From the NCBI RefSeq assembly GCF_013315695.1, contig NZ_CP054355.1: DNA of 64,000 bases; one strand, given 5' to 3'. Below the pieces are notes generated by a model. That model was not told the origin of the DNA, did not search any database, and saw only the letters and a program-made list of their open reading frames with translations. This DNA is from Escherichia coli (GTDB taxonomy: Bacteria; Pseudomonadota; Gammaproteobacteria; Enterobacterales; Enterobacteriaceae). Below, piece after piece: positions 31,390 through 43,402 of this stretch; positions within the stretch are counted from its first letter, which is position 1, and each line of letters begins with the position of its first letter. Made by a program: the position numbers and the translations under genes.

Positions 31390-32662
31390 ACAGCACCTCC
31401 ACAGGATACAGCCGGGCAATCCGCCGGGCCGGGAACCAGGTGCCGATCAACGCAATCAGTACCGCAATCACCAGTACGCACGGCACCACAATCCAGGCAA
31501 AATTAAGCGGCGCGTCGAAGAGCATGACGCCAATCGCTTTCGCCAGCCCCCACCCGGCAATACATCCCAGCGCACCGCCAGCCAGCCCGCTGGACGCCGC
31601 TTCCAGGTAGAACAGCAGCATAATTTGCCACTGTCGCGCACCCAGCGCTTTCATCAAACCGATCTCTTTGGCGCGTTCCATAATGGTGCTGGTCATCAGC
31701 GAGGCGATCCCCATTGCGGAAGCCACCAGCGCCGCGACGGTAACGACCGCCATCAGCAACTGAATTTTATCGATCACCACCCCTTCGGACGCCGCGACCT
31801 GCCATACCGGGCGCACTTCCGCACCGGAAATCGCCTCTTCCAGCTGATGCGCGATCGACGACACATAGGCCGTGCAATACCAGAGGTCGTACTCTTCGGC
31901 ATTGAGCGCGTCCAGGTTTTCCCGCGCGCGGCGGGACAGTTCGTTTTCCGGCACCGTCAGCGCCGAGACGCGAATCGCCTGCACTTTTCCGGGGAGCCCC
32001 AGCAGGTGCTGTACCGTGCTTAGCGGCATCACCAGTTGGTTATCTTCATCGCCGCCGCTGGAGAGGATACCGCTGACGGTGACCTGCACTGCTTCGCCTT
32101 CGGTACGTAATGTCAGCTTATCACCGGGTTTCCAGCCCATTTGCCGCGCCAGCGCGTGCCCGACTAAGGTCTGCGGCTCTGCGCCTGCGGGTTCCTGCGG
32201 CCAGTCGCCGGTCACCTGCCAGTATGGGCTGACCGTTTTCTGCCCCGTCTCATATCCCTCTTCATCAGGAATATCCACTGGCTGACTGAAGAAAGTGCCC
32301 AGAATCCGCACTGGTTCTCCCTCCACGCTGGCTTCGCCGCCGAGCATCGGCGCAAACCCGACAATGTTGTTTCGCCAGAAGATATCTTTGATGTTCGGCA
32401 GCTCGGCTTCATCAAGAAAATCCTGACCGGAAAGCGGATTACTGCTCTCACTAAACAGCGCGGGCAGCGCAGCCTGTCCGGCGGGTTCAATCAAAATGTT
32501 CGCACCATAAGACTTCAGCTCTCTGGACATTTTGTCGCCGATATCAATGGACACCGCCAGCAGCGCCGAGATCAGGCTGGAGGCCAGAAAAACGGTGATT
32601 ATCGCCAGCACTTTGCGGCGTAAATTGCGCCCCCAGGATTGTCGTAACATCCGCCACAGCAT
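31379..32662 (-). CDS. ABC transporter permease (FtsX-like)
   Basis: 427 aa, same architecture as neighbour. Confidence 0.75.
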   Translation of the reverse strand: MLWRMLRQSWGRNLRRKVLAIITVFLASSLISALLAVSIDIGDKMSRELKSYGANILIEPAGQAALPALFSESSNPLSGQDFLDEAELPNIKDIFWRNNIVGFAPMLGGEASVEGEPVRILGTFFSQPVDIPDEEGYETGQKTVSPYWQVTGDWPQEPAGAEPQTLVGHALARQMGWKPGDKLTLRTEGEAVQVTVSGILSSGGDEDNQLVMPLSTVQHLLGLPGKVQAIRVSALTVPENELSRRARENLDALNAEEYDLWYCTAYVSSIAHQLEEAISGAEVRPVWQVAASEGVVIDKIQLLMAVVTVAALVASAMGIASLMTSTIMERAKEIGLMKALGARQWQIMLLFYLEAASSGLAGGALGCIAGWGLAKAIGVMLFDAPLNFAWIVVPCVLVIAVLIALIGTWFPARRIARLYPVEVLYGR

Positions 32663-32664
32663 GA

Positions 32665-34044
32665 TTATTCCTCCCTCATGTCGGCAGGAACAAACTGCTC
32701 CGGCGTTTCACGGAAGCGTTCATAGTTAGCCTCTGACGAGAAGAACCAGGTCTTGCCGCCATAGCTGTATTTGTAATCGGCTGAGGTATTGGTCAACGTT
32801 GAACCATCGACCGGATCGGTCACTTTAATAGTCATGACCGTCGAGAAGTAGTTCACCCCTGTCGCCAGTTCTTTACCGGGGATCACCAGCTCTTTTTCAT
32901 CATTGTGCCAGTTTTCAATCGGCACCGGGTTACAGCCACCGGCCTTGCCGATAGACGGAATAAAAATATGCACTCCGCAGGCGACGCAGATAACCTGATT
33001 GCCCTCCATGACATAACCCTGATCGCCGCACAGCAGGCAGGCGTCGAACACCACGCCAAAACGCAGCTTGTCGGGATAGCGGTTAATCACGAAGAAGCGC
33101 ACCGCTTTGCCATCGTCCGCCACCCAGACGAAACGATGCAGTTTACCGTCACGAAGCTGTTCAACCGGCAGGCGCACCATGCCATCGCTCCCCAGCGTTA
33201 CGGGCACGGCTTCAGAGAGTTGCGGCGGCTGCGAGGCCACTTTATCCCACCACAGTTGGCCTGCGATAACGACCACCGCGCAGCCGATTGTGACCAACCA
33301 CAGCCGCAAAGCGTTGCGACGCTGCGCCAGCGCCAGACGGTGAGCAATCGGTTCTTCGGTTTCCCGCGTCTGTCGAAAAGCCCGCAACAGCGCCGGAAGC
33401 CAGCACAGCGCCAGGGCCAGCAGCAGCGCGGCTCCCGCCCAGTTATACAGCGCCGTGTTATTTGTGACTTTCGCCACGAAGCTCAGCAGTGATTTTCCCA
33501 GCGGAACAACCTGTAATTTCATCAGCAACAACAGCAGGTTGCCGCTCAGCGGCAGCCAGATCATCACCAGCAGAATCAGCGTTAACGGCCAGTACAGGCC
33601 GCGAATACGCCGCAGCAGCATCGCGCAGAGTACGCCCGCCAGACAGAGGATCGCAAAAGCGAGAACGACGGCCGTCAGGTTTAACAGCAGGTCAGTATTC
33701 AGCACATGCGTACTGGTCAGCCCGCCCAGATTAGGGTCCAGCGCCCAATGGCGGGCAGCGCCGAAAATCAGAATCCCCTGCCACAGATAGCGGATACGCG
33801 TTGAAGCCCACCAGAAACTGAGGACAAACAGCAGCGATACCATGACCTCCGCCCCAACCAGCAGCAGTTGTACCGGTTGGCTGCCGTGAATAAACAGTCC
33901 CGCCAGCACGCCGGCAATCAGCCCGGTCAGCAGCGTCCAGGTCAGCGGACGTAAAGAGGGAGGATCGTTTCGACTCCAGAGAACACCGGAAAGAAGCGCA
34001 ATGCAGAAAAAGACCTGTAGCGTCGTGACGAAAAAGTAACTCAT
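32665..34044 (-). CDS. Polytopic membrane protein with Cys-rich C-terminal periplasmic domain (Fet/cFtr cluster component)
   Basis: 459 aa; multiple TM helices then CLLCGD...CVACG motif. Confidence 0.6.
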   Translation of the reverse strand: MSYFFVTTLQVFFCIALLSGVLWSRNDPPSLRPLTWTLLTGLIAGVLAGLFIHGSQPVQLLLVGAEVMVSLLFVLSFWWASTRIRYLWQGILIFGAARHWALDPNLGGLTSTHVLNTDLLLNLTAVVLAFAILCLAGVLCAMLLRRIRGLYWPLTLILLVMIWLPLSGNLLLLLMKLQVVPLGKSLLSFVAKVTNNTALYNWAGAALLLALALCWLPALLRAFRQTRETEEPIAHRLALAQRRNALRLWLVTIGCAVVVIAGQLWWDKVASQPPQLSEAVPVTLGSDGMVRLPVEQLRDGKLHRFVWVADDGKAVRFFVINRYPDKLRFGVVFDACLLCGDQGYVMEGNQVICVACGVHIFIPSIGKAGGCNPVPIENWHNDEKELVIPGKELATGVNYFSTVMTIKVTDPVDGSTLTNTSADYKYSYGGKTWFFSSEANYERFRETPEQFVPADMREE

Positions 34045-34147: not shown

Positions 34148-34678
34148 TTAGTTCAGACCGACATATTTAAACTCGTAGCTCACATCAAACGGTTTCCACC
34201 AGCGGCCTACGCCTGTTTCGCTGTCAGTATGGCGATGCATCCCGGCTTTTGACGGCGGTTCAATGTGGTAGGTCACTTTATAGTTGCCCACGCCCATCAT
34301 TTTGATGTTCGCGCCATAGTGCGGGCCATCGCTGGCAACCATCGGCATGAAGGTGCCTTCCTGTTTTTCGCCCGTGTCGTTGTTGACCAGGGTGTAGCTG
34401 ATGGTCAGGTACGGGATCCATTCCCCTGCGCCAAAGCCGTTTTTATTGCCTTCTACAGCGTGGATATCCGCTTCAAGGTGAACATCGGCTTTTGCTGCCG
34501 GTAAGCCCATGCCGCGCGGTTCCATATCAATCGGTTGCAGGTAAACGGCCGCCAGCTCCATTTCATTCATGGTGACAGGCTCGCCTGCCGGGTACTCTTT
34601 AAAAGCAAACGCGGCTGGCGCAATGAAAATGCTGGCCATCACTGCGCTGGCAATCAGGGTTTTCTTCATGGTCATCAA
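34148..34678 (-). CDS. fetP: P19/FetP-family periplasmic iron-binding protein
   Basis: 176 aa with signal peptide; immediately downstream of FTR1-family permease as in FetMP / cFtr1-P19 systems. Confidence 0.7.
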   Translation of the reverse strand: MMTMKKTLIASAVMASIFIAPAAFAFKEYPAGEPVTMNEMELAAVYLQPIDMEPRGMGLPAAKADVHLEADIHAVEGNKNGFGAGEWIPYLTISYTLVNNDTGEKQEGTFMPMVASDGPHYGANIKMMGVGNYKVTYHIEPPSKAGMHRHTDSETGVGRWWKPFDVSYEFKYVGLN

Positions 34679-34715: not shown

Positions 34716-36662
34716 TTATGGGTTATTTTTTATCGTCTCCCCGGGAACCGCGCTTTTGCGCCGCATCACCCACAGCGCCACCAGCGCCGCGAGCAGCAAT
34801 ACGACCTGCGGTAACAACGTTTCCACGTAGGGATAAATCCCCAGCCAGCTGATTTCAGGGAAGCCGTTAATCAACGTAGGCTGGAACAGTTTGCCTTCCA
34901 CCAGTTCCAGAACGCCTTTGCCCGCAAAGACGAAGGCCATCAGATACATGAAACTGCCGGTAAACATAAAGAAGGGTTTCAGCGGCAGGCGCACCACTGA
35001 GTAACGCATCACCAGCCAGGCGAGCAGCAGCACCACGCAGCCAATCACAAAACCGGCGCCAATCGCCATATGGCCGGATACCGTGTTTGCATCGCCAATC
35101 AGAGCGTAATAGAACAGCACCGTTTCCGCCCCTTCGCGGTACACCGCCAGGAAGCTGGTCAGCCATAGTCCGACCAGGGAGCCTCGCGACAGGGAATGAG
35201 ACAGTTTGCCTTCCAGCCAGGCTTTCCAGTGGCGCGCTTCCACTTTGGACAGCAGCCAGTAACTCATAAAGAACAGCATCACGACGGCAATCAGCATCGT
35301 TATGCCTTCCAGCAGTTCACGGCTGGCGCCGGAGTTAGTAAACAGCATCTGGAAGATAGCGGCGGTGATGACGCTGGCGATCAGCGCCACAATTACCGAC
35401 TGACGAATAAGCGGCAGCTTATCCTGATGGTTGTTTTTCACCATGTAGGCCACGATTGCCGCAACAATCAGCAGCGCTTCCAGCCCCTCGCGCACGATGA
35501 TCATCAGACTATAGAGCAGCAGACTCCACTGGGTTTCTTCGCCTTCGCCCAGCATCGTCACGGCTTTTTGCAGATCCTGCGCCAGCGCGCTGGCCTCTGC
35601 ATTCAGGCGCTCAACCGGCTGACCGGCCTTCATCAGACTGACCAGGCGGGTAAAATACGCCTCCAGCGTGGTTTTAAATGCCGAATCGCGAGAGCCGATT
35701 TTGTTTTCCATGCCGCTGGCTTCGAAGCGGTCGAAGTAGGTATCCTGGATATCCAGAATCGCATTCTTCGCATCGCCGCCCTGATAGCGCGCTATCGCGT
35801 CCTGAATGCTCTGGTTAATTCCCGTCGTCACCTCAGCCCAGTCGGTGCGGTTATTTCCCTCGTCCGCCGCCGGAATGTTGTCTGCGCTTTGCGCTGCGGC
35901 AACCTGCTGATCGTCACGGGTGGTTGGCAAGCCGGGTAAGATATCCTCGATATCCTGTAGCAGCGTAGTGACCTGATAGGAGACATCGTTGAGATGGTCA
36001 GGTTGCGCGGTCAGCGCAATCAGGGATGAGAATTGTTGGTTAATGGAGGCGGCATCTTTTGCAGAACGGTTTTGTCTGAGGGACATCTCCATCTCAGAGT
36101 TTTTAAAGCCCTGATAGTGCGCCTGTTGAACGTGCTGACTGGCAACGCTGTAATTCCCGGCCTGATATTCAGTGACCGCCTGCGCCAGCAGATCGTCGAT
36201 CGTCCTGAAACTCTCCTGCCAGTGAACGGCAATGTCGTCCCTGGACAGCGCGTTGTGCTGCTCTTCGGCCACCAGACGATGTCCGCCATCCAGCACCGGT
36301 TCCACTTCGCGCAGTGCGGCTTTCAGCCAGTCAATGCGCGCCTGGACGTCAGCGAGCGGTTTTTTCTCGCCAATCATTCGACGGATCTCGCCGAATGCGC
36401 TCTCCATCTCGTAACTTTTGCGCGCGGAAATGTTGATGCGGATCGGCCCTTCCAGGTTCTCGAACACCTCAAAATAGGCCATTTGTACCGTGCGGCGCGC
36501 CTCGTCGGCATGCTGTTGCTGATAAAGTTCCGCTGTTTTATCAAGACGTTGCTCGATATCTTCAATCAAAGGCGCATAATTCGTCGACGCCCAGACACTC
36601 ATGCTTATAAACAAGCCAAAGAGAGTAACCAACAAAGAGTTACGGAAGTTACGCACGTGCAC
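34716..36662 (-). CDS. fetM: FTR1-family iron permease with large N-terminal periplasmic domain (FetM-like)
   Basis: 648 aa; REGLE motif (IVREGLEALLIVAAIVAY) typical of FTR1 permeases. Confidence 0.8.
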   Translation of the reverse strand: MHVRNFRNSLLVTLFGLFISMSVWASTNYAPLIEDIEQRLDKTAELYQQQHADEARRTVQMAYFEVFENLEGPIRINISARKSYEMESAFGEIRRMIGEKKPLADVQARIDWLKAALREVEPVLDGGHRLVAEEQHNALSRDDIAVHWQESFRTIDDLLAQAVTEYQAGNYSVASQHVQQAHYQGFKNSEMEMSLRQNRSAKDAASINQQFSSLIALTAQPDHLNDVSYQVTTLLQDIEDILPGLPTTRDDQQVAAAQSADNIPAADEGNNRTDWAEVTTGINQSIQDAIARYQGGDAKNAILDIQDTYFDRFEASGMENKIGSRDSAFKTTLEAYFTRLVSLMKAGQPVERLNAEASALAQDLQKAVTMLGEGEETQWSLLLYSLMIIVREGLEALLIVAAIVAYMVKNNHQDKLPLIRQSVIVALIASVITAAIFQMLFTNSGASRELLEGITMLIAVVMLFFMSYWLLSKVEARHWKAWLEGKLSHSLSRGSLVGLWLTSFLAVYREGAETVLFYYALIGDANTVSGHMAIGAGFVIGCVVLLLAWLVMRYSVVRLPLKPFFMFTGSFMYLMAFVFAGKGVLELVEGKLFQPTLINGFPEISWLGIYPYVETLLPQVVLLLAALVALWVMRRKSAVPGETIKNNP

Positions 36663-36674
36663 ACCGCCAAAGAA

Positions 36675-36693
36675 TGCAAATGATAATTATTAT
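36675..36693. promoter_or_regulatory. Fur box-like site in fetM promoter region
   Basis: gcaaatgataattattatc matches Fur consensus at 16 of 19 positions; 13 bp upstream of fetM start. Confidence 0.5.
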
Positions 36694-36948
36694 CATATCT
36701 TTTTGTCGCGTTGTACATGACCTGGATCATAAAAATGTCAGCAGACGACAAGTTATGTAAATTTATTTCATCAAATCGTGATGAACACACACATTATGCG
36801 TTGATAAAAGGGACGTTATCTCCCTGTTTTTCTCATGGAATTAACGGCAAGGCAGGCGCGGTAACAGAGGAATAAATCCCCCTGCCGACAGTGATATTAT
36901 TCATTATCGGCAGGCAGAAATAAAACGCGTTATTGCGTACAGCAATAT

Positions 36949-37710
36949 TCAAAGATTAAGGTTATTTCGATCGCTGGCAAGACGCTGTAAGAATTGACCA
37001 TATCCCTGCGGCCCCATCCAGTAGTTAATACTTTTCTCAACGCCGGTTGATGTCAACGTCGCACCGGAAATACCGTCAACGGTATATTCATCGGCATGTT
37101 CAGGTTTATCCTGTACTATTTTCAATGCAGGATGTCCGCTGTTATCTAATAATCGTTTCCCTGGCCACTGTTTGCGCCAGTTGGCGTCTTCCACCCTAGC
37201 CCCCAGAAACGGCGTTTCCCGTTGCTGATAATAATACAGATTTCTCACCGTACGACCGTCCAGCCCCAGAGCAAGAAACGCATGCATCATGGATTTCGCG
37301 CCCTTACCGGTAACTGGAATGATAACCTGCTGAATTTCATTATTTTTATCTTTCACAAAGAACACATCCGCCACCGTACAGCGCTGACGAACCTGCGCTG
37401 GGTCGCGTTCAGGGGCAAGTTTTTCACACTTCTGCCGCGCGGTGTCCGCGCTGCTGCCAGCCACCAGTTCGCCGGAATCTAAATTAACATGGCGTTGAAT
37501 AATATAACGATGATAGAGCGTTTCGACTGATTTTTTATCCTGGGTCTCTGATTTCATCAGGCCCGCAGCGTGTAAAATTGCCGCCTGTTTTTCCTCCTCT
37601 GTCGGCTCCGTCATTTCTCCCTGGAACAGCATAAACCATGCCGCCGCCGCAACAAAAATAAGGACACAAAGCACCATCATTGATGCAACAATAATTTTAC
37701 CCTTGCGCAT
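36949..37710 (-). CDS. FMN-binding domain protein (NqrC/RnfG-like, flavinylation motif DGISGATLTS)
   Basis: ORF 36949..37764, likely start MRKGKIIV with TM anchor; S/TGAT motif near C-terminus. Confidence 0.6.
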   Translation of the reverse strand: MRKGKIIVASMMVLCVLIFVAAAAWFMLFQGEMTEPTEEEKQAAILHAAGLMKSETQDKKSVETLYHRYIIQRHVNLDSGELVAGSSADTARQKCEKLAPERDPAQVRQRCTVADVFFVKDKNNEIQQVIIPVTGKGAKSMMHAFLALGLDGRTVRNLYYYQQRETPFLGARVEDANWRKQWPGKRLLDNSGHPALKIVQDKPEHADEYTVDGISGATLTSTGVEKSINYWMGPQGYGQFLQRLASDRNNLNL

Positions 37711-37946
37711 TGAATTGTTATCCCTGTCAAAATGGAAATCGAAAAAATCGCCTGAACGTATCACAGACTTTCATTCAATTAAAACAGATATGCCATTATC
37801 AATTCAGGTTTGCAACGTCAGGCAGCGGTAAAAAATAATAACTGGCGTCGGTAAAAAAGCAGCAAAAATAACAGAAAACACGCTCTCCGCTCGTTTTACA
37901 CATCCTTACAATGGGTTAAAAAATGCCGGGTTTCCCCGGCACGCTA

Positions 37947-38453
37947 TCAAAACATGGCTGCCCGCCACAGACGTAACTTCATGCCCCAGTAGCTGGTCCA
38001 GCCGCTGGTCGTAGTTACCACCTGCCCCTTCGACACCACCACCAGCGTTGGCGTGACGCTGATTTCCCAGTTTCGTGATATCTCACCGCCGCTATCATTC
38101 ACGACGGGGAACGTCACCCTTTTACGCGATAACCAGCGGGAAACCTCCCCGTCATTACCGGAACGCAGCGCGATGGTCATGACGCTCTCCCCTTCCGACT
38201 GCAAACGGGCGACATCCGGCGTGGTGAAACGGCAGATACCGCACCAGCTCGCCCAGAAGTAGAGCAGCACCGGGCGTTCTTCACTGATCGACGCCAGCGT
38301 TACGGTTTCCCCGTCCAGCGTATGCAGCGGCGTGCTGTCAAACATGGCCGGCATCTGCGGAGAACGCCAGACATCCAGCAGGATTATCACGCCAGCCAGC
38401 AGAACCAGTAAGATCGCGCCTTCACGCAGCCAGCGGCGCAGTTTACTGAGCAT
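37947..38453 (-). CDS. Membrane-anchored TlpA/ScsD-like thioredoxin
   Basis: 168 aa; N-terminal TM; WASWCGICR active site. Confidence 0.65.
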   Translation of the reverse strand: MLSKLRRWLREGAILLVLLAGVIILLDVWRSPQMPAMFDSTPLHTLDGETVTLASISEERPVLLYFWASWCGICRFTTPDVARLQSEGESVMTIALRSGNDGEVSRWLSRKRVTFPVVNDSGGEISRNWEISVTPTLVVVSKGQVVTTTSGWTSYWGMKLRLWRAAMF

Positions 38454-38613
38454 GGGCCACCGCCAGTTTTTCTTTCACCACCGCCTCAAGGGTCTCCCAC
38501 GATACCGCGCCGGGGATCATCTCGTCGCCAATGATGGTTGCCGGCGTCCCCTGAACGCCAACCAGCCGGGCGAGTTGCAGATTGGTGCTCAACGTCTCCA
38601 TGCTTTTCTCATC
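38443..38613 (-). pseudogene. DsbA/ScsC-like oxidoreductase, C-terminal fragment; 5' end replaced by a Tn3-family-like repeat
   Basis: ORF 38443..38670; native part ...GVQGTPATIIGDEMIPGAVSWETLEAVVKEKL; upstream codons derive from the 38-bp repeat. Confidence 0.5.
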
Positions 38614-38651
38614 GGGGTCAGTTTGGATATAGAGAATTATTGTACTATAAG
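38614..38651. repeat. Tn3-family-like 38-bp terminal repeat (GGGG...TAAG)
   Basis: ggggtcagtttggatatagagaattattgtactataag; copy of the repeat at 24293..24329. Confidence 0.45.
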
Positions 38652-39207
38652 GACTTCCCCGGCATGTCAACGCCGGTGTTTACGGTTTCTGTCTGCACTA
38701 TAGTAAAAAAATAAAGGGGAGAGACTGCGGTACTATAAACGATCATGATGAATCGTCATCGATTCGGACCCTGATGAAAGACGCTCGTGAGGCTCTAGTT
38801 CGTTAGTCGGGTACACTTGCCCTGTACAATAAGCAGATATACCTCACGGGGTCTAACCCTTTATCATCAACGAGTTGCAGATCAGATGGTCATACAGCTT
38901 TGTACTTTAGCTGGCTGAGTACAACCTGAAATCATCACCGTAATGCAATGATGCCCAGCACAGTCTTGCATTTTTGGCAGCGATGGCAACAACAGCGCGC
39001 CAGTATCCTCTGCGTTCGACCAGTGAGCAGACCCAACGACTGAATAAATCAGTCCTTTTCTCCGCCCCGATCAGTACCGAGCGGGCACCCTGAACCAGAA
39101 GTGTTCTCAGATACGAATCGCCAGCTTTCGTTATCCTGCCAAGCTTCGACTTTCCGCCGCTGCTGTACTGCGATGGTGTCAGTCCCAGCCAGGCTGCCAG
39201 CTGGGGC
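38652..39207 (-). mobile_element. IS110/IS1111-family element fragment (3' part, IS5075/IS4321-like), truncated by IS26
   Basis: C-terminal transposase segment ...ANFATVPQLAAWLGLTPSQYSSGGKSKLGRITKAGDSYLRTLLVQGARSV...; adjacent to a Tn3-family IR, the usual target of this IS group. Confidence 0.45.
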
Positions 39208-39571
39208 ACTGTTGCAAAGTTAGCGATGAGGCAGCCTTTTGTCTTATTCAAAGGCCTTACATTTCAAAAACTCTGCTTACCAGGCGCATTTCGCCCAGGG
39301 GATCACCATAATAAAATGCTGAGGCCTGGCCTTTGCGTAGTGCACGCATCACCTCAATACCTTTGATGGTGGCGTAAGCCGTCTTCATGGATTTAAATCC
39401 CAGCGTGGCGCCGATTATCCGTTTCAGTTTGCCATGATCGCATTCAATCACGTTGTTCCGGTACTTAATCTGTCGGTGTTCAACGTCAGACGGGCACCGG
39501 CCTTCGCGTTTGAGCAGAGCAAGCGCGCGACCATAGGCGGGCGCTTTATCCGTGTTGATGAATCGCGGGAT
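39208..39571 (-). mobile_element. IS26 fragment (right end with 3' part of transposase)
   Basis: IR ggcactgttgcaaa at 39208; reading frame gives ...QIPRFINTDKAPAYGRALALLKREGRCPSDVEHRQIKYRNNVIECDHGKLKR...RLVSRVFEM, identical in pattern to IS26 Tnp C-terminus. Confidence 0.8.
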
Positions 39572-39606: not shown

Positions 39607-42594
39607 TTAAGGCTGTTTTTTGTACTGACTGACATCAACTGCTCGCAAAGGACGATACTTCCCTTCAGCCAGCTTCTTATTGTTTTTCCAGATATAGTCC
39701 CCTGTCAGATTAATGTGCTCCCAGCCCAGCGGAGACAAATGTGACAACAATTGCTCATTAATATGTAGCCCTTTCTTTTTCAGCAGGTTAATGGCGTTTT
39801 CTATATATACGGTATTCCACAAAGTGATTGCGGCAGTGAGCAGCGTAAGCCCACTGGCGCGGTAACTCTGGTTTTCAATACCACGATCCCTTATTTCTCC
39901 CAGACGATGCATGAAGACAGCTCTGGCAAGGGCATTCCGGGCTTCCCCTTTGTTCAGACCTGCCTGAACCCTACGACGAAGCGCCGGATCGCGGAACCAG
40001 TCCAGCATGAACAGTGTTCGCTCAATACGACCAATTTCTCTTAACGCCTTAGCAAGGCCATTCTGTTTCGGATAACTGGTCAATTTTTTCAGCATCAGAG
40101 AAGCGGTCACTGTTCCCTGTTTTATTGAGGTCGCCAGTCTCAGAATTTCATTCCAGTGTATTTTTATCTCTTTGATATTCAGGGGGGTTGTGGAGATAAT
40201 TGACTGTAGAGCAGGATAGTTATCAGCTTTACCTTGAATAAACAAACGTTTGTCATGCAGATCCCGGATCCTTGGGGCAAAAGCGAATCCCAGCAGATGC
40301 ATTAGTGCAAAAACATGCTCCGTGAAACCTGCTGTATCGGTGTAATGTTCCGTTATATCAAGGTCACTTTCGTGATACAGAAGACCATCAAGTACGTGGG
40401 TGGAATCACGAACACGACTGATTACTTTGGTATAAAACGGACTATATTGATCTGAGATATGCGTATAAAACTGCACCCCAGGTTCCTGACCGTACTTCAA
40501 ATTAACCTGACCGGCATAGCGCCCATGACTGCCAACCCTAAAATTCTGGCCGTCAGAGGATGAGGTGGAACCGTCTCCCCATAATGCCGCCAGCGGTCGT
40601 GACTTCTGGGCATTAACCAGTTCTGCCAGTGCAGCAGAGTACGTTTCATCACGGATGTACCATGCTTGTATGTTTTCCAGCGAAGCTCGTGTGGTTCCCG
40701 GACAGGACTCTGCCATTTTTTCCAACCCTAGATTGATGCCGTCCGCCAGGATAGTGGTTAGTAGTAAACGATTATCCTGAGGACGGATTAGCGGATTCTT
40801 AAGATGAGTAAAATGTCGCGAGAAGGCAGTCCATCGCTCGACTTCATCAAGTATCTCTGTAATTTTGGGGTGCGGTAGCATGTTGTAAATCAGGTCGGCC
40901 AGGGGAGAGACTGTTGAAGGAACGCTGTTATCCAGTGGGGTGATCTTTACACCTTTATCTGAAATATCCACATCAGGAAGCTCCCCTGCGACAGCCATTG
41001 CGTTAACTTCCTCCAGACGGGAGGCCAGTAGAGTCAGTCTGGCATTAAGATAAGCCCCGCATTCTGTGCCAACAGGTAAATTTAATAGGTTATTATTTAA
41101 TAACTTTTCGAAATCATCGTTAGGCATAAGATAATCATCAAAGTTTTTGTAGCGCCGGGAGCCCCTGACCCAGATATCACCCGCCCGCAGCGCCCCCTTT
41201 AGCTCATTCATTGCGCAAATTTCATAGTATTGTCGGTCAATGCCTGAGGGGGTGACCACCATCTTTCTCCAGCTCTCAGGAATGAAATCCAGTGGTGCCG
41301 ATGCAGGAACCTTTCGTAGCTGTTTACGGTACATATCACGAATAGTTTCAAGGGCATCATTAAGCGGCAACGCTGCCGAAGTGGCTCTCAGTTGCAGGGC
41401 CGATAGAAAACGAAAAGAATATTTGCGCAATGTACTGAATTTTTCGGTAATAAGATGAAGCGGCTCAAAATTATCCTTACGTGCAAGAAGCTTTGTTTCC
41501 TCCAGACTGGCGACAAAATCGTCCCACGGTAACACTCGTTCAATAGCAGACAGAGGATCTTCGCCTGCATTGCGTGCATCCAGGATAGCCTGGCCAACAG
41601 AAACATACTGACGTAACTTTTGCTGTATCAACTTGCCCGTTTTCTGAAGACGCTCAGCCTGCTGATGTTTTGCCCGACTGAACATGCTGCCTAGAATACG
41701 TTCATGCAGTTCTATAATTTCATCAATGATTGTGGCTCTGGCCTCAGTCAGTACACAGACCATCGTTGCGTATCGACGAGCAGGGGAAAAATCAGCCAGA
41801 TCGCGACTGCTCATTTTGCGGCCCTCACGCGCGAGTTTCAGCAATCGGTTCTGGTGAACGGTTCTCTCCACTCCTTCCGGCAGCGCCAGAGCTTCAATAG
41901 CGTTAAGGCGGTCAATGTGTTGCAGGACATTCTTTCCATTGATTTTCCCTGGAGGTTGAAGCAGCCACGTCAAACGGGATATTTGTTTTTCATTTGTCAC
42001 CAACAGGGCATCAAGCGCAGATTTATGCGTGATATCAAGGTGCGCATTCAGCGTTGTATACACCGTTTTATCACCCAGTGTCATTGCTTCTGCACAGGTA
42101 CGTTCCAGAACATCAATGCCTGGAATAATAATTCGCTGTTGATGCAGGTACTTTAGTAACTCCTCTGCGATAAGTATGCCTCTGTCCGTTCTGGTAGACA
42201 GAGGGAGCAGATGCCGGATACATTCTTTCTGAAGTGCACCGTTAAAGGCTTTCAGTTCAAGATATCGATAAAGTTCCCTCATATGCTCACGTCTGGTGGT
42301 ATCACGACCGGAAACGTATTCCTGCCAAAGTTCTGCTGATAACTTAAGTCGAGCGCCAATGGTTTTTAGCAATTTTGCGGGTGGGGATGATTTTTTATCC
42401 GGGGCAAACCCAATACTTTTCAGATAACAGAGAAGAACGGCAAAACCAAACCGGCTGGCAGGTTTACGGTGAGCATTGATAATTGCCAGATCCTGCTCAC
42501 TGAAATACGTCATTCGAGTCAGTGTTAACTCATCGTCTGGCAATGCCAGTAATGATTCTCTTTCCGATAGAGAAAGAATCTGCCTCCTTGCCAT
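39607..42594 (-). CDS. tnpA: Tn3-family transposase TnpA
   Basis: 995 aa; C-terminal DDE region typical of Tn3 family; ends inside IR. Confidence 0.9.
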   Translation of the reverse strand: MARRQILSLSERESLLALPDDELTLTRMTYFSEQDLAIINAHRKPASRFGFAVLLCYLKSIGFAPDKKSSPPAKLLKTIGARLKLSAELWQEYVSGRDTTRREHMRELYRYLELKAFNGALQKECIRHLLPLSTRTDRGILIAEELLKYLHQQRIIIPGIDVLERTCAEAMTLGDKTVYTTLNAHLDITHKSALDALLVTNEKQISRLTWLLQPPGKINGKNVLQHIDRLNAIEALALPEGVERTVHQNRLLKLAREGRKMSSRDLADFSPARRYATMVCVLTEARATIIDEIIELHERILGSMFSRAKHQQAERLQKTGKLIQQKLRQYVSVGQAILDARNAGEDPLSAIERVLPWDDFVASLEETKLLARKDNFEPLHLITEKFSTLRKYSFRFLSALQLRATSAALPLNDALETIRDMYRKQLRKVPASAPLDFIPESWRKMVVTPSGIDRQYYEICAMNELKGALRAGDIWVRGSRRYKNFDDYLMPNDDFEKLLNNNLLNLPVGTECGAYLNARLTLLASRLEEVNAMAVAGELPDVDISDKGVKITPLDNSVPSTVSPLADLIYNMLPHPKITEILDEVERWTAFSRHFTHLKNPLIRPQDNRLLLTTILADGINLGLEKMAESCPGTTRASLENIQAWYIRDETYSAALAELVNAQKSRPLAALWGDGSTSSSDGQNFRVGSHGRYAGQVNLKYGQEPGVQFYTHISDQYSPFYTKVISRVRDSTHVLDGLLYHESDLDITEHYTDTAGFTEHVFALMHLLGFAFAPRIRDLHDKRLFIQGKADNYPALQSIISTTPLNIKEIKIHWNEILRLATSIKQGTVTASLMLKKLTSYPKQNGLAKALREIGRIERTLFMLDWFRDPALRRRVQAGLNKGEARNALARAVFMHRLGEIRDRGIENQSYRASGLTLLTAAITLWNTVYIENAINLLKKKGLHINEQLLSHLSPLGWEHINLTGDYIWKNNKKLAEGKYRPLRAVDVSQYKKQP

Positions 42595-42760
42595 ATAGTT
42601 ATCCTTGTTAATTATTTAGTACGTTATTTTTGATGAAAAGGTTATTGCATAAGGGTACACCCTGATGCGAGATATAAAATGTGACCTCATACAAATAATG
42701 ACATAACCTATATGCGATAGAATATATGCAACAACCTAAATGCGACAATGCGGTGAAAAA
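42595..42760. promoter_or_regulatory. Probable res site and divergent promoters between tnpA and tnpR
   Basis: Position only, by analogy with Tn3-family organisation. Confidence 0.35.
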
Positions 42761-43402
42761 ATGTTCATCAGAGCTTATTTAAGGGCGTCAACAGAAGATC
42801 AGTTTGCAGATCGAGCAAAAGAGATGCTGGAACAGTTCGTCCAAGAACGGGGGCATAAAATTGCCAGTTATTATCGGGAGAACATAAGCGGTACAAAACT
42901 TGACCGTCCGGAACTGAAACGCTTACTGATGGACAGTCACCGTAATGATATTTTGCTGGTCGAGCAGATAGACCGCCTGACCCGACTGAGTAACAGCGAC
43001 TGGATAACGCTGAAAAAGCAGATAGAACAACACGAACTGCGGATTGTCAGTCTGGATGTTCCAACATCATGGCAAGCCCTGTCAGATAAAGATCCTTCAC
43101 AATCAGATCCGATTACCCGCGCAGTGATAACTGCAATAAATAATATGCTTATAGACCTGATGGCCGCGATGTCGCATAAGGACTGGCTGAGTCGTCGCCA
43201 ACGCCAAAAACAGGGAATTGAACGAGCTCATACGTTGGGTAAATACCGGGGAAAACAGGCCGATCAGGAACGTCATCAGAAAGTGTTGTACTACAGACAA
43301 GTAAAAAAACTCAGCATTAGAGAAACAGCAGATGCAACGGGCTACAGCACTTCGCAGGTTTGTCGCATTCAGGCTCTCTATAAAGAGGTTAAACCTGATT
43401 AA
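42761..43402 (+). CDS. tnpR: Serine recombinase / resolvase TnpR
   Basis: ORF 42740..43402, likely start MFIRAYLRAS; serine recombinase N-terminal catalytic pattern and C-terminal HTH. Confidence 0.85.
   Translation: MFIRAYLRASTEDQFADRAKEMLEQFVQERGHKIASYYRENISGTKLDRPELKRLLMDSHRNDILLVEQIDRLTRLSNSDWITLKKQIEQHELRIVSLDVPTSWQALSDKDPSQSDPITRAVITAINNMLIDLMAAMSHKDWLSRRQRQKQGIERAHTLGKYRGKQADQERHQKVLYYRQVKKLSIRETADATGYSTSQVCRIQALYKEVKPD

Follow-up and report, generated by a model that had tools for sequence, protein, structure and literature searches.

A plasmid-borne gene of the NqrC type is described here that directly precedes the FetMP iron-uptake genes of Escherichia coli and whose product is a candidate electron carrier for that system. 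This orphan gene (253 amino acids; P009 in pUTI89, pRS218_010 in pRS218) lies on the minus strand, at positions 36949–37710, of a 64,000-nucleotide stretch of E. coli DNA (contig NZ_CP054355.1, assembly GCF_013315695.1), called the window below, which represents a pUTI89/pRS218-type IncF plasmid. Judged from sequence, the gene product is a full-length paralogue of NqrC, which is the C subunit of the sodium pump Na+-NQR (Na+-translocating NADH:quinone reductase), and this identity is more specific than that of a generic flavin mononucleotide (FMN)-binding domain protein. On balance, it is probable that its flavin domain lies in the periplasm, that the flavin transferase ApbE (also called Ftp) of the host attaches FMN to Thr218, and that the protein then relays electrons in support of the redox step of FetMP. 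This reading is carried by homology and predicted fold, the flavinylation motif, the absence of apbE from the window and from plasmids, its near-universal presence in the host, conserved gene order and purifying selection. The gene and its main elements are the following.

36949–37710, minus strand: orphan NqrC-like flavoprotein gene (open reading frame, RefSeq coding sequence, Pfam, NCBIfam and fold).
37627–37695, minus strand: predicted single N-terminal transmembrane anchor (approximately residues 6–28) with M-R-K-G-K ahead of it (Kyte–Doolittle profile; AlphaFold helix).
37294–37299, minus strand: codons of Ala138-Lys139, in place of the canonical Leu-Trp pocket pair (alignment to L149/W150 of Vibrio harveyi NqrC).
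37057–37077, minus strand: flavinylation motif D212-G-I-S-G-A-T218, followed by L-T-S (sequence, published motif and alignment to Thr225 of Vibrio cholerae NqrC).

The reading frame extends from an ATG at 37710 to a stop codon at 36949, and the RefSeq coding sequence of pUTI89 has identical coordinates. A longer form starting from a GTG at 37764 is unlikely because the homologues in the alignment begin at the position of ATG 37710, most of them with MRKGK or MRKSK. Residues 140–231 match the Pfam FMN_bind domain (PF04205; E = 4.9e-11, 43.6 bits against a cut-off of 22). The ApbE recognition motif, D-x-x-[S/T]-G-A-[S/T] (PMC12052999), occurs only once in the six-frame translation of the whole window, where approximately 0.27 occurrences would be expected by chance. 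That this is not a chance match follows from its position, since Thr218 (codon 37057–37059) pairs in the alignment with the flavinylated Thr225 of V. cholerae NqrC, as well as with Thr229 of V. harveyi NqrC. Threonine is kept at this position in 66 of 68 sequences of the orphan clade and in all 24 canonical NqrC sequences. The original prediction, made from the sequence alone, of an FMN-binding domain protein with a DGISGATLTS site directly upstream of an iron permease is thus borne out by the reading frame, the domain and the motif, and an FTR1-family permease gene does follow on the same strand, 286 bp away.

The relationship with NqrC covers the entire protein. It scores 388.5 bits with the NCBIfam NqrC model NF003747 (cut-off 336) and 182 bits with TIGR01938 (cut-off 144). 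The match to V. cholerae NqrC (7xk3_C) is full-length, covering residues 3–245 with E = 5.7e-49, and a T225Y-mutant NqrC entry is also among the structure matches. Overall, identity to the NqrC proteins of V. cholerae (7XK3 chain C, 4U9S) and V. harveyi (4XA7) amounts to approximately 38–40% over the full length, and the DG(I/L)SGATLTS motif with its threonine is shared. The AlphaFold model, with a predicted local distance difference test score (pLDDT) of 83, finds only NqrC structures among its best Foldseek matches; the target-normalised template modelling score (TM-score) of the predicted fold is 0.81–0.85, with 0.85 and a root-mean-square deviation of 2.8 Å for 4u9s.

The layout of the protein also follows canonical NqrC, namely one N-terminal membrane helix and then the FMN domain. 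Residues ~6–28 form the sole Kyte–Doolittle maximum above 1.6, and the AlphaFold model places a helix at residues 3–30. Because the positively charged R2, K3 and K5 precede this helix and an acidic stretch comes after it, an N-in, C-out topology is predicted, with the flavin domain in the periplasm. Such a location would place the domain outside the cytoplasm, where ApbE acts.

The E. coli Ftp protein is a periplasmic lipoprotein (PMC12052999), and it flavinylates E. coli RnfG in vitro (PMC4767422). No homologue of it is present in the window, as tblastn and phmmer (--max) searches of all six frames with E. coli ApbE/Ftp returned nothing better than E = 0.7. Moreover, apbE does not occur within 10 kb of the orphan gene in any of 22 related loci obtained from a species-level scan (one genome per species, 100,044 species). 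Among 5426 complete E. coli genomes, apbE (ftp) is chromosomal in 5421 and plasmid-borne in none. When 72,556 plasmid records were searched with ApbE by tblastn, the only E. coli records among the best 30 matches were of 365 kb to 4.9 Mb, and these look like chromosomal or mis-filed sequences; E. coli was outside the ten commonest organisms in this search, though approximately 800 E. coli plasmids carry the orphan gene. The native ApbE substrates of the host have motifs close to DGISGAT, that is DQFTGAT in RsxG and DGISQAT in RsxD. Dependence of the orphan protein on chromosomal ApbE of the host for its predicted flavinylation is well supported, because apbE is found in 5421 of the 5426 genomes and never on a plasmid. 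Both claims made earlier on this point, that the window holds no flavin transferase gene and that the protein would have to rely on a host enzyme, agree with these searches, in which complete E. coli genomes hold the gene in the chromosome only and no plasmid-sized E. coli record appears among the best 30 plasmid matches.

The name under which the gene is currently filed leads to a different role. In RefSeq it bears the name Na(+)-translocating NADH-quinone reductase subunit C, and pRS218_010 appears as "Na+ efflux (NqrC subunit)" in the pRS218 paper (PMC4155114). According to these sources, the protein would be a true subunit C of the pump, serving Na+ efflux, and the fact that the NCBIfam NqrC equivalog cut-offs are passed also speaks for it. 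Nevertheless, this possibility is scarcely credible. The other pump genes (nqrA, B, D, E and F) are missing from the window, from pUTI89 and from all 22 related loci. A 4-kb Yokenella nqrA-D probe finds no match in the 5426 complete E. coli genomes, and a genuine Na+-NQR in this species was rejected on that ground. Canonical NqrC is encoded within nqrABCDEF; the closest canonical homologue (43% identity) sits inside nqrABCDEF-nqrM. The orphan proteins form a clade of their own, with 32–100% identity among themselves (median 56%) and 22–45% to canonical NqrC, and they reach only about half of the canonical score with TIGR01938 (147–185 against 265–313 bits), while two conserved pocket residues are replaced. 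The NF003747 equivalog model scores best on the orphan clade, where the plasmid allele alone passes its cut-off and the other members pass only TIGR01938. This clade was told apart by signature residues and identity distributions; a quick, midpoint-rooted neighbour-joining tree was distorted by chimeric and fragmentary sequences. The annotation as a pump subunit is contradicted by the genomic context, and the misnaming has already reached the literature as Na+ efflux. A second, divergent orphan NqrC-like allele (P0040, 58% identity) is carried by some E. coli, where it lies on a contig of 133 kb.

The flavin pocket shows what is retained from the pump subunit and what is particular to the clade. 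In V. harveyi NqrC, the pocket consists of L149, W150, E176, T177, L180, G181, G227, A228, L230 and T231; Leu149 and Trp150 line it, and Leu149 provides one face of a clamp around the isoalloxazine ring (PMC4348036). Eight of these ten residues are kept in the orphan protein (E165, T166, L169, G170, G216, A217, L219 and T220). The remaining pair, Leu-Trp in all 24 canonical sequences, is Ala-Lys in all 68 members of the orphan clade and in no canonical one. Another signature is a pair of cysteines seen in no canonical sequence (0 of 24): Cys95 (codon 37426–37428) is present in 66 of the 68 clade members, and Cys111 (codon 37378–37380) in 67. In the AlphaFold model, they lie on adjacent predicted strands, and they may form a periplasmic disulfide. 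As read from the substitutions, the pocket of the orphan clade would be more open and positively charged, which could shift the flavin potential and ease access for soluble acceptors.

The link to iron uptake comes from the genes that follow the orphan gene, which are listed here.

34716–36662, minus strand: fetM, FTR1/ILT-family iron permease (Pfam FTR1, 1.1e-49; RefSeq 'FTR1 family protein').
34148–34678, minus strand: fetP, P19-family periplasmic iron/copper-binding protein (Pfam Iron_transport, 6e-70).
32665–34044, minus strand: fetA/flsD, polytopic membrane protein with Cys-rich DUF2318 (FtrD-like) and YHS domains (Pfam FtrD-like, 2.5e-28; YHS, 6.2e-17).
29559–32662, minus strand: fetBCD/flsABC (Pfam FtsX, MacB_PCD and ABC_tran; RefSeq).
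31379–32662 and 30259–31389, minus strand: the two FtsX/MacB-type permeases of fetBCD/flsABC.
29559–30254, minus strand: the ATP-binding cassette (ABC) ATPase of fetBCD/flsABC.
29087–29572, minus strand: fetE/flsT, TlpA-type thioredoxin-like lipoprotein, the last conserved gene of the module (Pfam Redoxin, 2e-18; RefSeq TlpA; 22 of 22 loci).

The mature FetP protein encoded here is identical to the FetP of uropathogenic E. coli F11 (PDB 3NRP/3NRQ), save for the first aligned residue beside the processing site. Because of this identity, the locus is recognised as the FetMP system of uropathogenic E. coli, which has been characterised together with its Fet/Fls accessory genes (PMC7285068, PMC10783030, PMC6083913).

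Conservation of this arrangement extends far beyond the plasmid. The 22 loci of the orphan clade belong to Citrobacter, Klebsiella, Raoultella, Enterobacter, Phytobacter, Superficieibacter and Sodalis, and in every one of them the orphan gene stands directly before fetM-fetP-fetA(DUF2318)-FtsX-FtsX-ABC-TlpA on the same strand. As this order is constant and the genes flanking the block vary between genera, the orphan gene delimits, on the 5' side, a conserved module of eight genes. It should be added that the count is inflated by shared descent, since, Sodalis apart, the 22 loci belong to a single family. In the complete E. coli genomes, the orphan gene is present in 827 (approximately 15%) and fetMP in 829. 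A 1.2-kb region containing the gene occurs in 833 of the 72,556 plasmid records, in 832 of them with at least 99% identity. The gene evolves under purifying selection, with a ratio of nonsynonymous to synonymous substitution rates (dN/dS) of 0.09–0.22, the synonymous sites being near saturation. As far as evidence of this kind reaches, the connection with iron suggested in the original prediction is sustained, both by the identity of the downstream genes as characterised FetMP and by the synteny in all 22 species.

In the mechanism proposed, the single N-terminal helix would anchor the protein in the inner membrane and hold the flavin domain in the periplasm. The periplasmic lipoprotein ApbE/Ftp, encoded in the host chromosome, would then attach FMN to Thr218 through a phosphoester bond, with no transferase supplied by the plasmid. 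The resulting flavoprotein would relay single electrons for the iron-uptake system encoded next to it, FetMP-FetABCDE (FetMP-Fls). Its likeliest role would be to provide electrons for the reduction of Fe(III) in the periplasm, whether it acts on the iron itself or returns the Cu/Fe site of FetP to the reduced state, after which FetM would import the iron. The electrons would probably reach it from a partner in the membrane, for instance FetA with its Cys-rich DUF2318 domain; this would echo the step from the Fe-S centre to the FMN of NqrC in the pump. In PMC7285068, which summarises the work of Koch et al., FetP is proposed as an Fe3+ reductase, with no electron source named, and FetM as an Fe2+ transporter. 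The Fet accessory genes are needed for iron-limited growth of Campylobacter jejuni (PMC10783030).

An alternative is that the protein does serve the Fet system and that the electrons flow the other way. The eukaryotic FTR1 prototype, yeast Fet3p/Ftr1p, imports Fe(III) made by a coupled oxidase, FetM belongs to the same permease family, and a ferroxidase-permease mechanism has been proposed for FtrABCD as well. By analogy, the flavoprotein could accept electrons from the oxidation of Fe(II) at FetP/FetM and pass them to a membrane acceptor. The FMN of NqrC both receives and hands on single electrons in the pump (PMC4348036), and the C. jejuni thioredoxins FetE and FetF act as oxidases in extracts, in a transport described as based on oxidation/reduction (PMC10783030). 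On the other side, the roles of Fe2+ transporter for FetM and Fe3+ reductase for FetP, given in PMC7285068, fit reduction, and published readings of FMN-binding proteins in such clusters also favour reduction (PMC8238504, PMC6083913); the direction of electron flow is not readable from sequence. Oxidative flow is judged quite unlikely.

A separate set of observations concerns transcription, for which two further elements are relevant.

36676–36694, no strand assigned: Fur box that lies downstream of the orphan gene and overlaps the promoter of fetM (16 of 19 matches to GATAATGATAATCATTATC).
36873–36922, minus strand: stable hairpin just past the stop codon of the orphan gene, with an imperfect U-rich tail, a possible terminator (RNA fold).

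The Fur box is among the three best sites in the window and overlaps promoter-like hexamers at 36717–36680 (minus strand). In each of 20 related loci, a box with 1–3 mismatches out of 19 is located between fetM and the orphan gene. The hairpin has a folding energy of -30.6 kcal/mol (z = -4.6), and none of 200 shuffled sequences folds as well. Only in Klebsiella oxytoca (locus L024, 9908–9926), among the related loci, is the orphan gene itself preceded by a strong Fur box, with 2 mismatches, besides the one before fetM.

Several points weigh against the proposed role in iron reduction. Upstream of the orphan gene itself, no Fur box above the chance level (8 of 19 mismatches being the mode of shuffled sequence) is found in the window or in 19 of 20 related loci. 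With the conserved Fur box located downstream of it, no such box ahead of it and a hairpin after its stop codon, the gene is probably transcribed separately. It would thus be monocistronic, not regulated by Fur or iron, and outside the fetM transcription unit; co-regulation with the cluster from the Fur-controlled promoter would not extend to it. The gene is also the fastest-evolving one in the module, with 49–76% identity compared to 80–97% for FetM and FetP. Homologous Campylobacter Fet clusters function without an FMN protein (PMC10783030, PMC6083913), and the signature of the orphan clade is found in none of the Yersinia species genomes scanned (one genome per species); consequently, the protein should be considered an accessory component rather than a core one. 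Moreover, the reduction of Fe(III) is attributed to FetP itself in PMC7285068. The exchange of Leu-Trp for Ala-Lys in the pocket could weaken flavin binding rather than adapt it. Finally, the literature searched (on NqrC together with FetMP, and by pUTI89 locus tags) contains no experiment on the orphan gene.

Some of these facts would suit a neighbour with no part in iron uptake, be it a periplasmic redox protein of general function, acting perhaps together with the adjacent Scs thiol-disulfide genes or on another substrate, or a slowly decaying passenger that came with the island. Apart from the apparently separate transcription unit outside the Fur-controlled promoter and the fast evolution, the gene is located between scsD and fetM on the plasmid and in Citrobacter, and its loci all come from the one family plus Sodalis. 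This possibility is nonetheless unlikely. Klebsiella, Raoultella, Superficieibacter, Phytobacter and Sodalis have no scs genes nearby, yet the Fet genes are always present, and the orphan gene keeps its place at the 5' edge of the module while the flanks vary by genus. The low dN/dS, the near-invariant motif and the clade-specific Cys95, Cys111 and Ala138-Lys139 speak against decay. A functional tie to the Scs copper-stress genes was rejected, as scs is adjacent only in Citrobacter loci and plasmids.

If the reading of an FMN-carrying electron relay for FetMP is followed further, a bolder version can be outlined, which should be treated as tentative and is rather doubtful. The protein would be an exapted pump subunit whose opened, positively charged pocket and new cysteine pair make it the missing electron donor of FetMP. 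It could be fed by FetA, mimicking the Fe-S to FMN step of Na+-NQR, or it could dock on the host Rsx/Rnf or Nqr core. In effect, a virulence plasmid would thereby wire the NADH or ferredoxin of the host to the reduction of Fe(III) in the periplasm, borrowing host ApbE to mature the protein.

Among known systems, NqrC remains the closest relative of the protein. The differences lie in the lack of partner subunits, both nearby and in E. coli, in the Ala-Lys pair and clade-specific cysteines, and in a genomic partner that is an iron-uptake cluster and not a respiratory pump. RnfG/RsxG, the FMN subunit of Rnf/Rsx and a natural substrate of E. coli ApbE, belongs to the same domain family and has a similar motif; however, identity is only 22% over 116 residues, and RsxG is encoded within rsxABCDGE. 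The FtrABCD systems of Bordetella and Brucella resemble the present one in combining a P19-type protein and an FTR1 permease with dedicated redox accessories, and FtrA is a clear relative of the FetP encoded here. The known accessories of FtrABCD comprise the cupredoxin FtrB and the polyferredoxin FtrD; no flavoprotein is known among them.

The nearest published parallels are P19/FTR1 clusters that carry a gene for an FMN-binding protein. According to Liu et al. (2018), the product of the seventh gene is an FMN-binding protein in Actinobacteria, Firmicutes, Spirochaetes and Synergistetes and a thioredoxin in Proteobacteria, and either one was proposed to give reducing power (PMC6083913). Meheust et al. 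(2021) described 260 P19 clusters with an FMN-binding gene, mostly Gram-positive, and remarked that systems of this sort frequently depend on components whose genes lie elsewhere in the genome (PMC8238504). The present locus shares with them an FMN_bind protein, predicted to depend on ApbE, accompanied by FTR1, P19, DUF2318, two FtsX proteins and an ABC ATPase; in both, this protein is a proposed source of reducing power for iron uptake outside the cytosol. It differs in that the protein is of the NqrC type and occurs in Enterobacteriaceae, and in that the gene is first and not seventh, lies outside the Fur-box promoter and stands alongside the TlpA thioredoxin rather than replacing it. Enterobacterial genera are not mentioned in the accessible part of the supplement of Meheust et al. 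(PMC8238504), nor is the orphan flavoprotein mentioned in the FetMP literature examined (PMC7285068, PMC10783030 and PMC6083913; Koch 2011 was outside its scope). Because the general idea that FMN-binding proteins serve P19/FTR1 systems is already published, the gain is incremental; what is new is a mis-annotated, NqrC-derived enterobacterial case.

The surroundings of the module on the plasmid include the following features.

37947–38453, minus strand: scsD-like membrane-anchored thioredoxin gene, the upstream neighbour outside the conserved module (Pfam Redoxin/Thioredoxin).
38443–38670, 38907–39251, 39257–39451, 39607–42594 and 42740–43402: a stretch of scsC and mobile elements (scsC, IS110, IS26, Tn3 transposase and resolvase, respectively).

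A terminator-like hairpin after the scsD-like gene was located at 37923–37942 by a terminator scan. The scsC fragment, corresponding to the C-terminal 75 amino acids of a DsbA-like protein, adjoins insertion-sequence (IS) remnants, namely IS110-family and IS26-type transposase fragments, beyond which lie a complete Tn3-family transposase gene and a resolvase gene. Since IS26 is intact at the equivalent point of pUTI89, the window is a rearranged variant. Citrobacter and the plasmids are the only places in which scs genes adjoin the module; Klebsiella, Raoultella, Superficieibacter, Phytobacter and Sodalis lack them there. This suggests that the plasmid segment derives from a Citrobacter-like chromosome. 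Just downstream of the TlpA gene, a 161-amino-acid protein with weak helix-turn-helix matches is encoded at 28577–29062. This gene, absent from beside the Fet module in Klebsiella, Raoultella and Superficieibacter, joins it only in Citrobacter-type loci and plasmids, which supports the same Citrobacter-like origin.

Other observations concern fetM and the remaining Fur sites. The start of fetM is uncertain, being placed at 36602 by RefSeq and at 36656 in the pRS218 record, with the first GTG at 36662. The longer forms open with an apparent signal peptide (MHVRNFRNSLLVTLFGLFISMSVWAS), which would be in keeping with a protein whose N-terminal domain is large and periplasmic. At 18524–18542, directly upstream of a gene for a ChaN-like haem-binding protein, there is a second good Fur box (16 of 19); a third Fur-like site lies at 15730–15748. 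The stretch at 18577–23952, comprising ChaN-like, TonB-like and TonB-dependent receptor genes and the senB region, is the cjrABC-senB locus known from pUTI89.

The gene deserves attention on account of its distribution, as approximately 15% of complete E. coli genomes carry it, for the most part on virulence plasmids of the pUTI89/pRS218 type from urinary and meningitis strains. FetMP is thought to depend on the redox chemistry of iron, and a dedicated periplasmic flavoprotein would be an obvious candidate for its electron source. The protein would also represent a clean natural case of a plasmid gene product that needs a post-translational modification from the host chromosome, and of an NQR subunit recruited to a different task.

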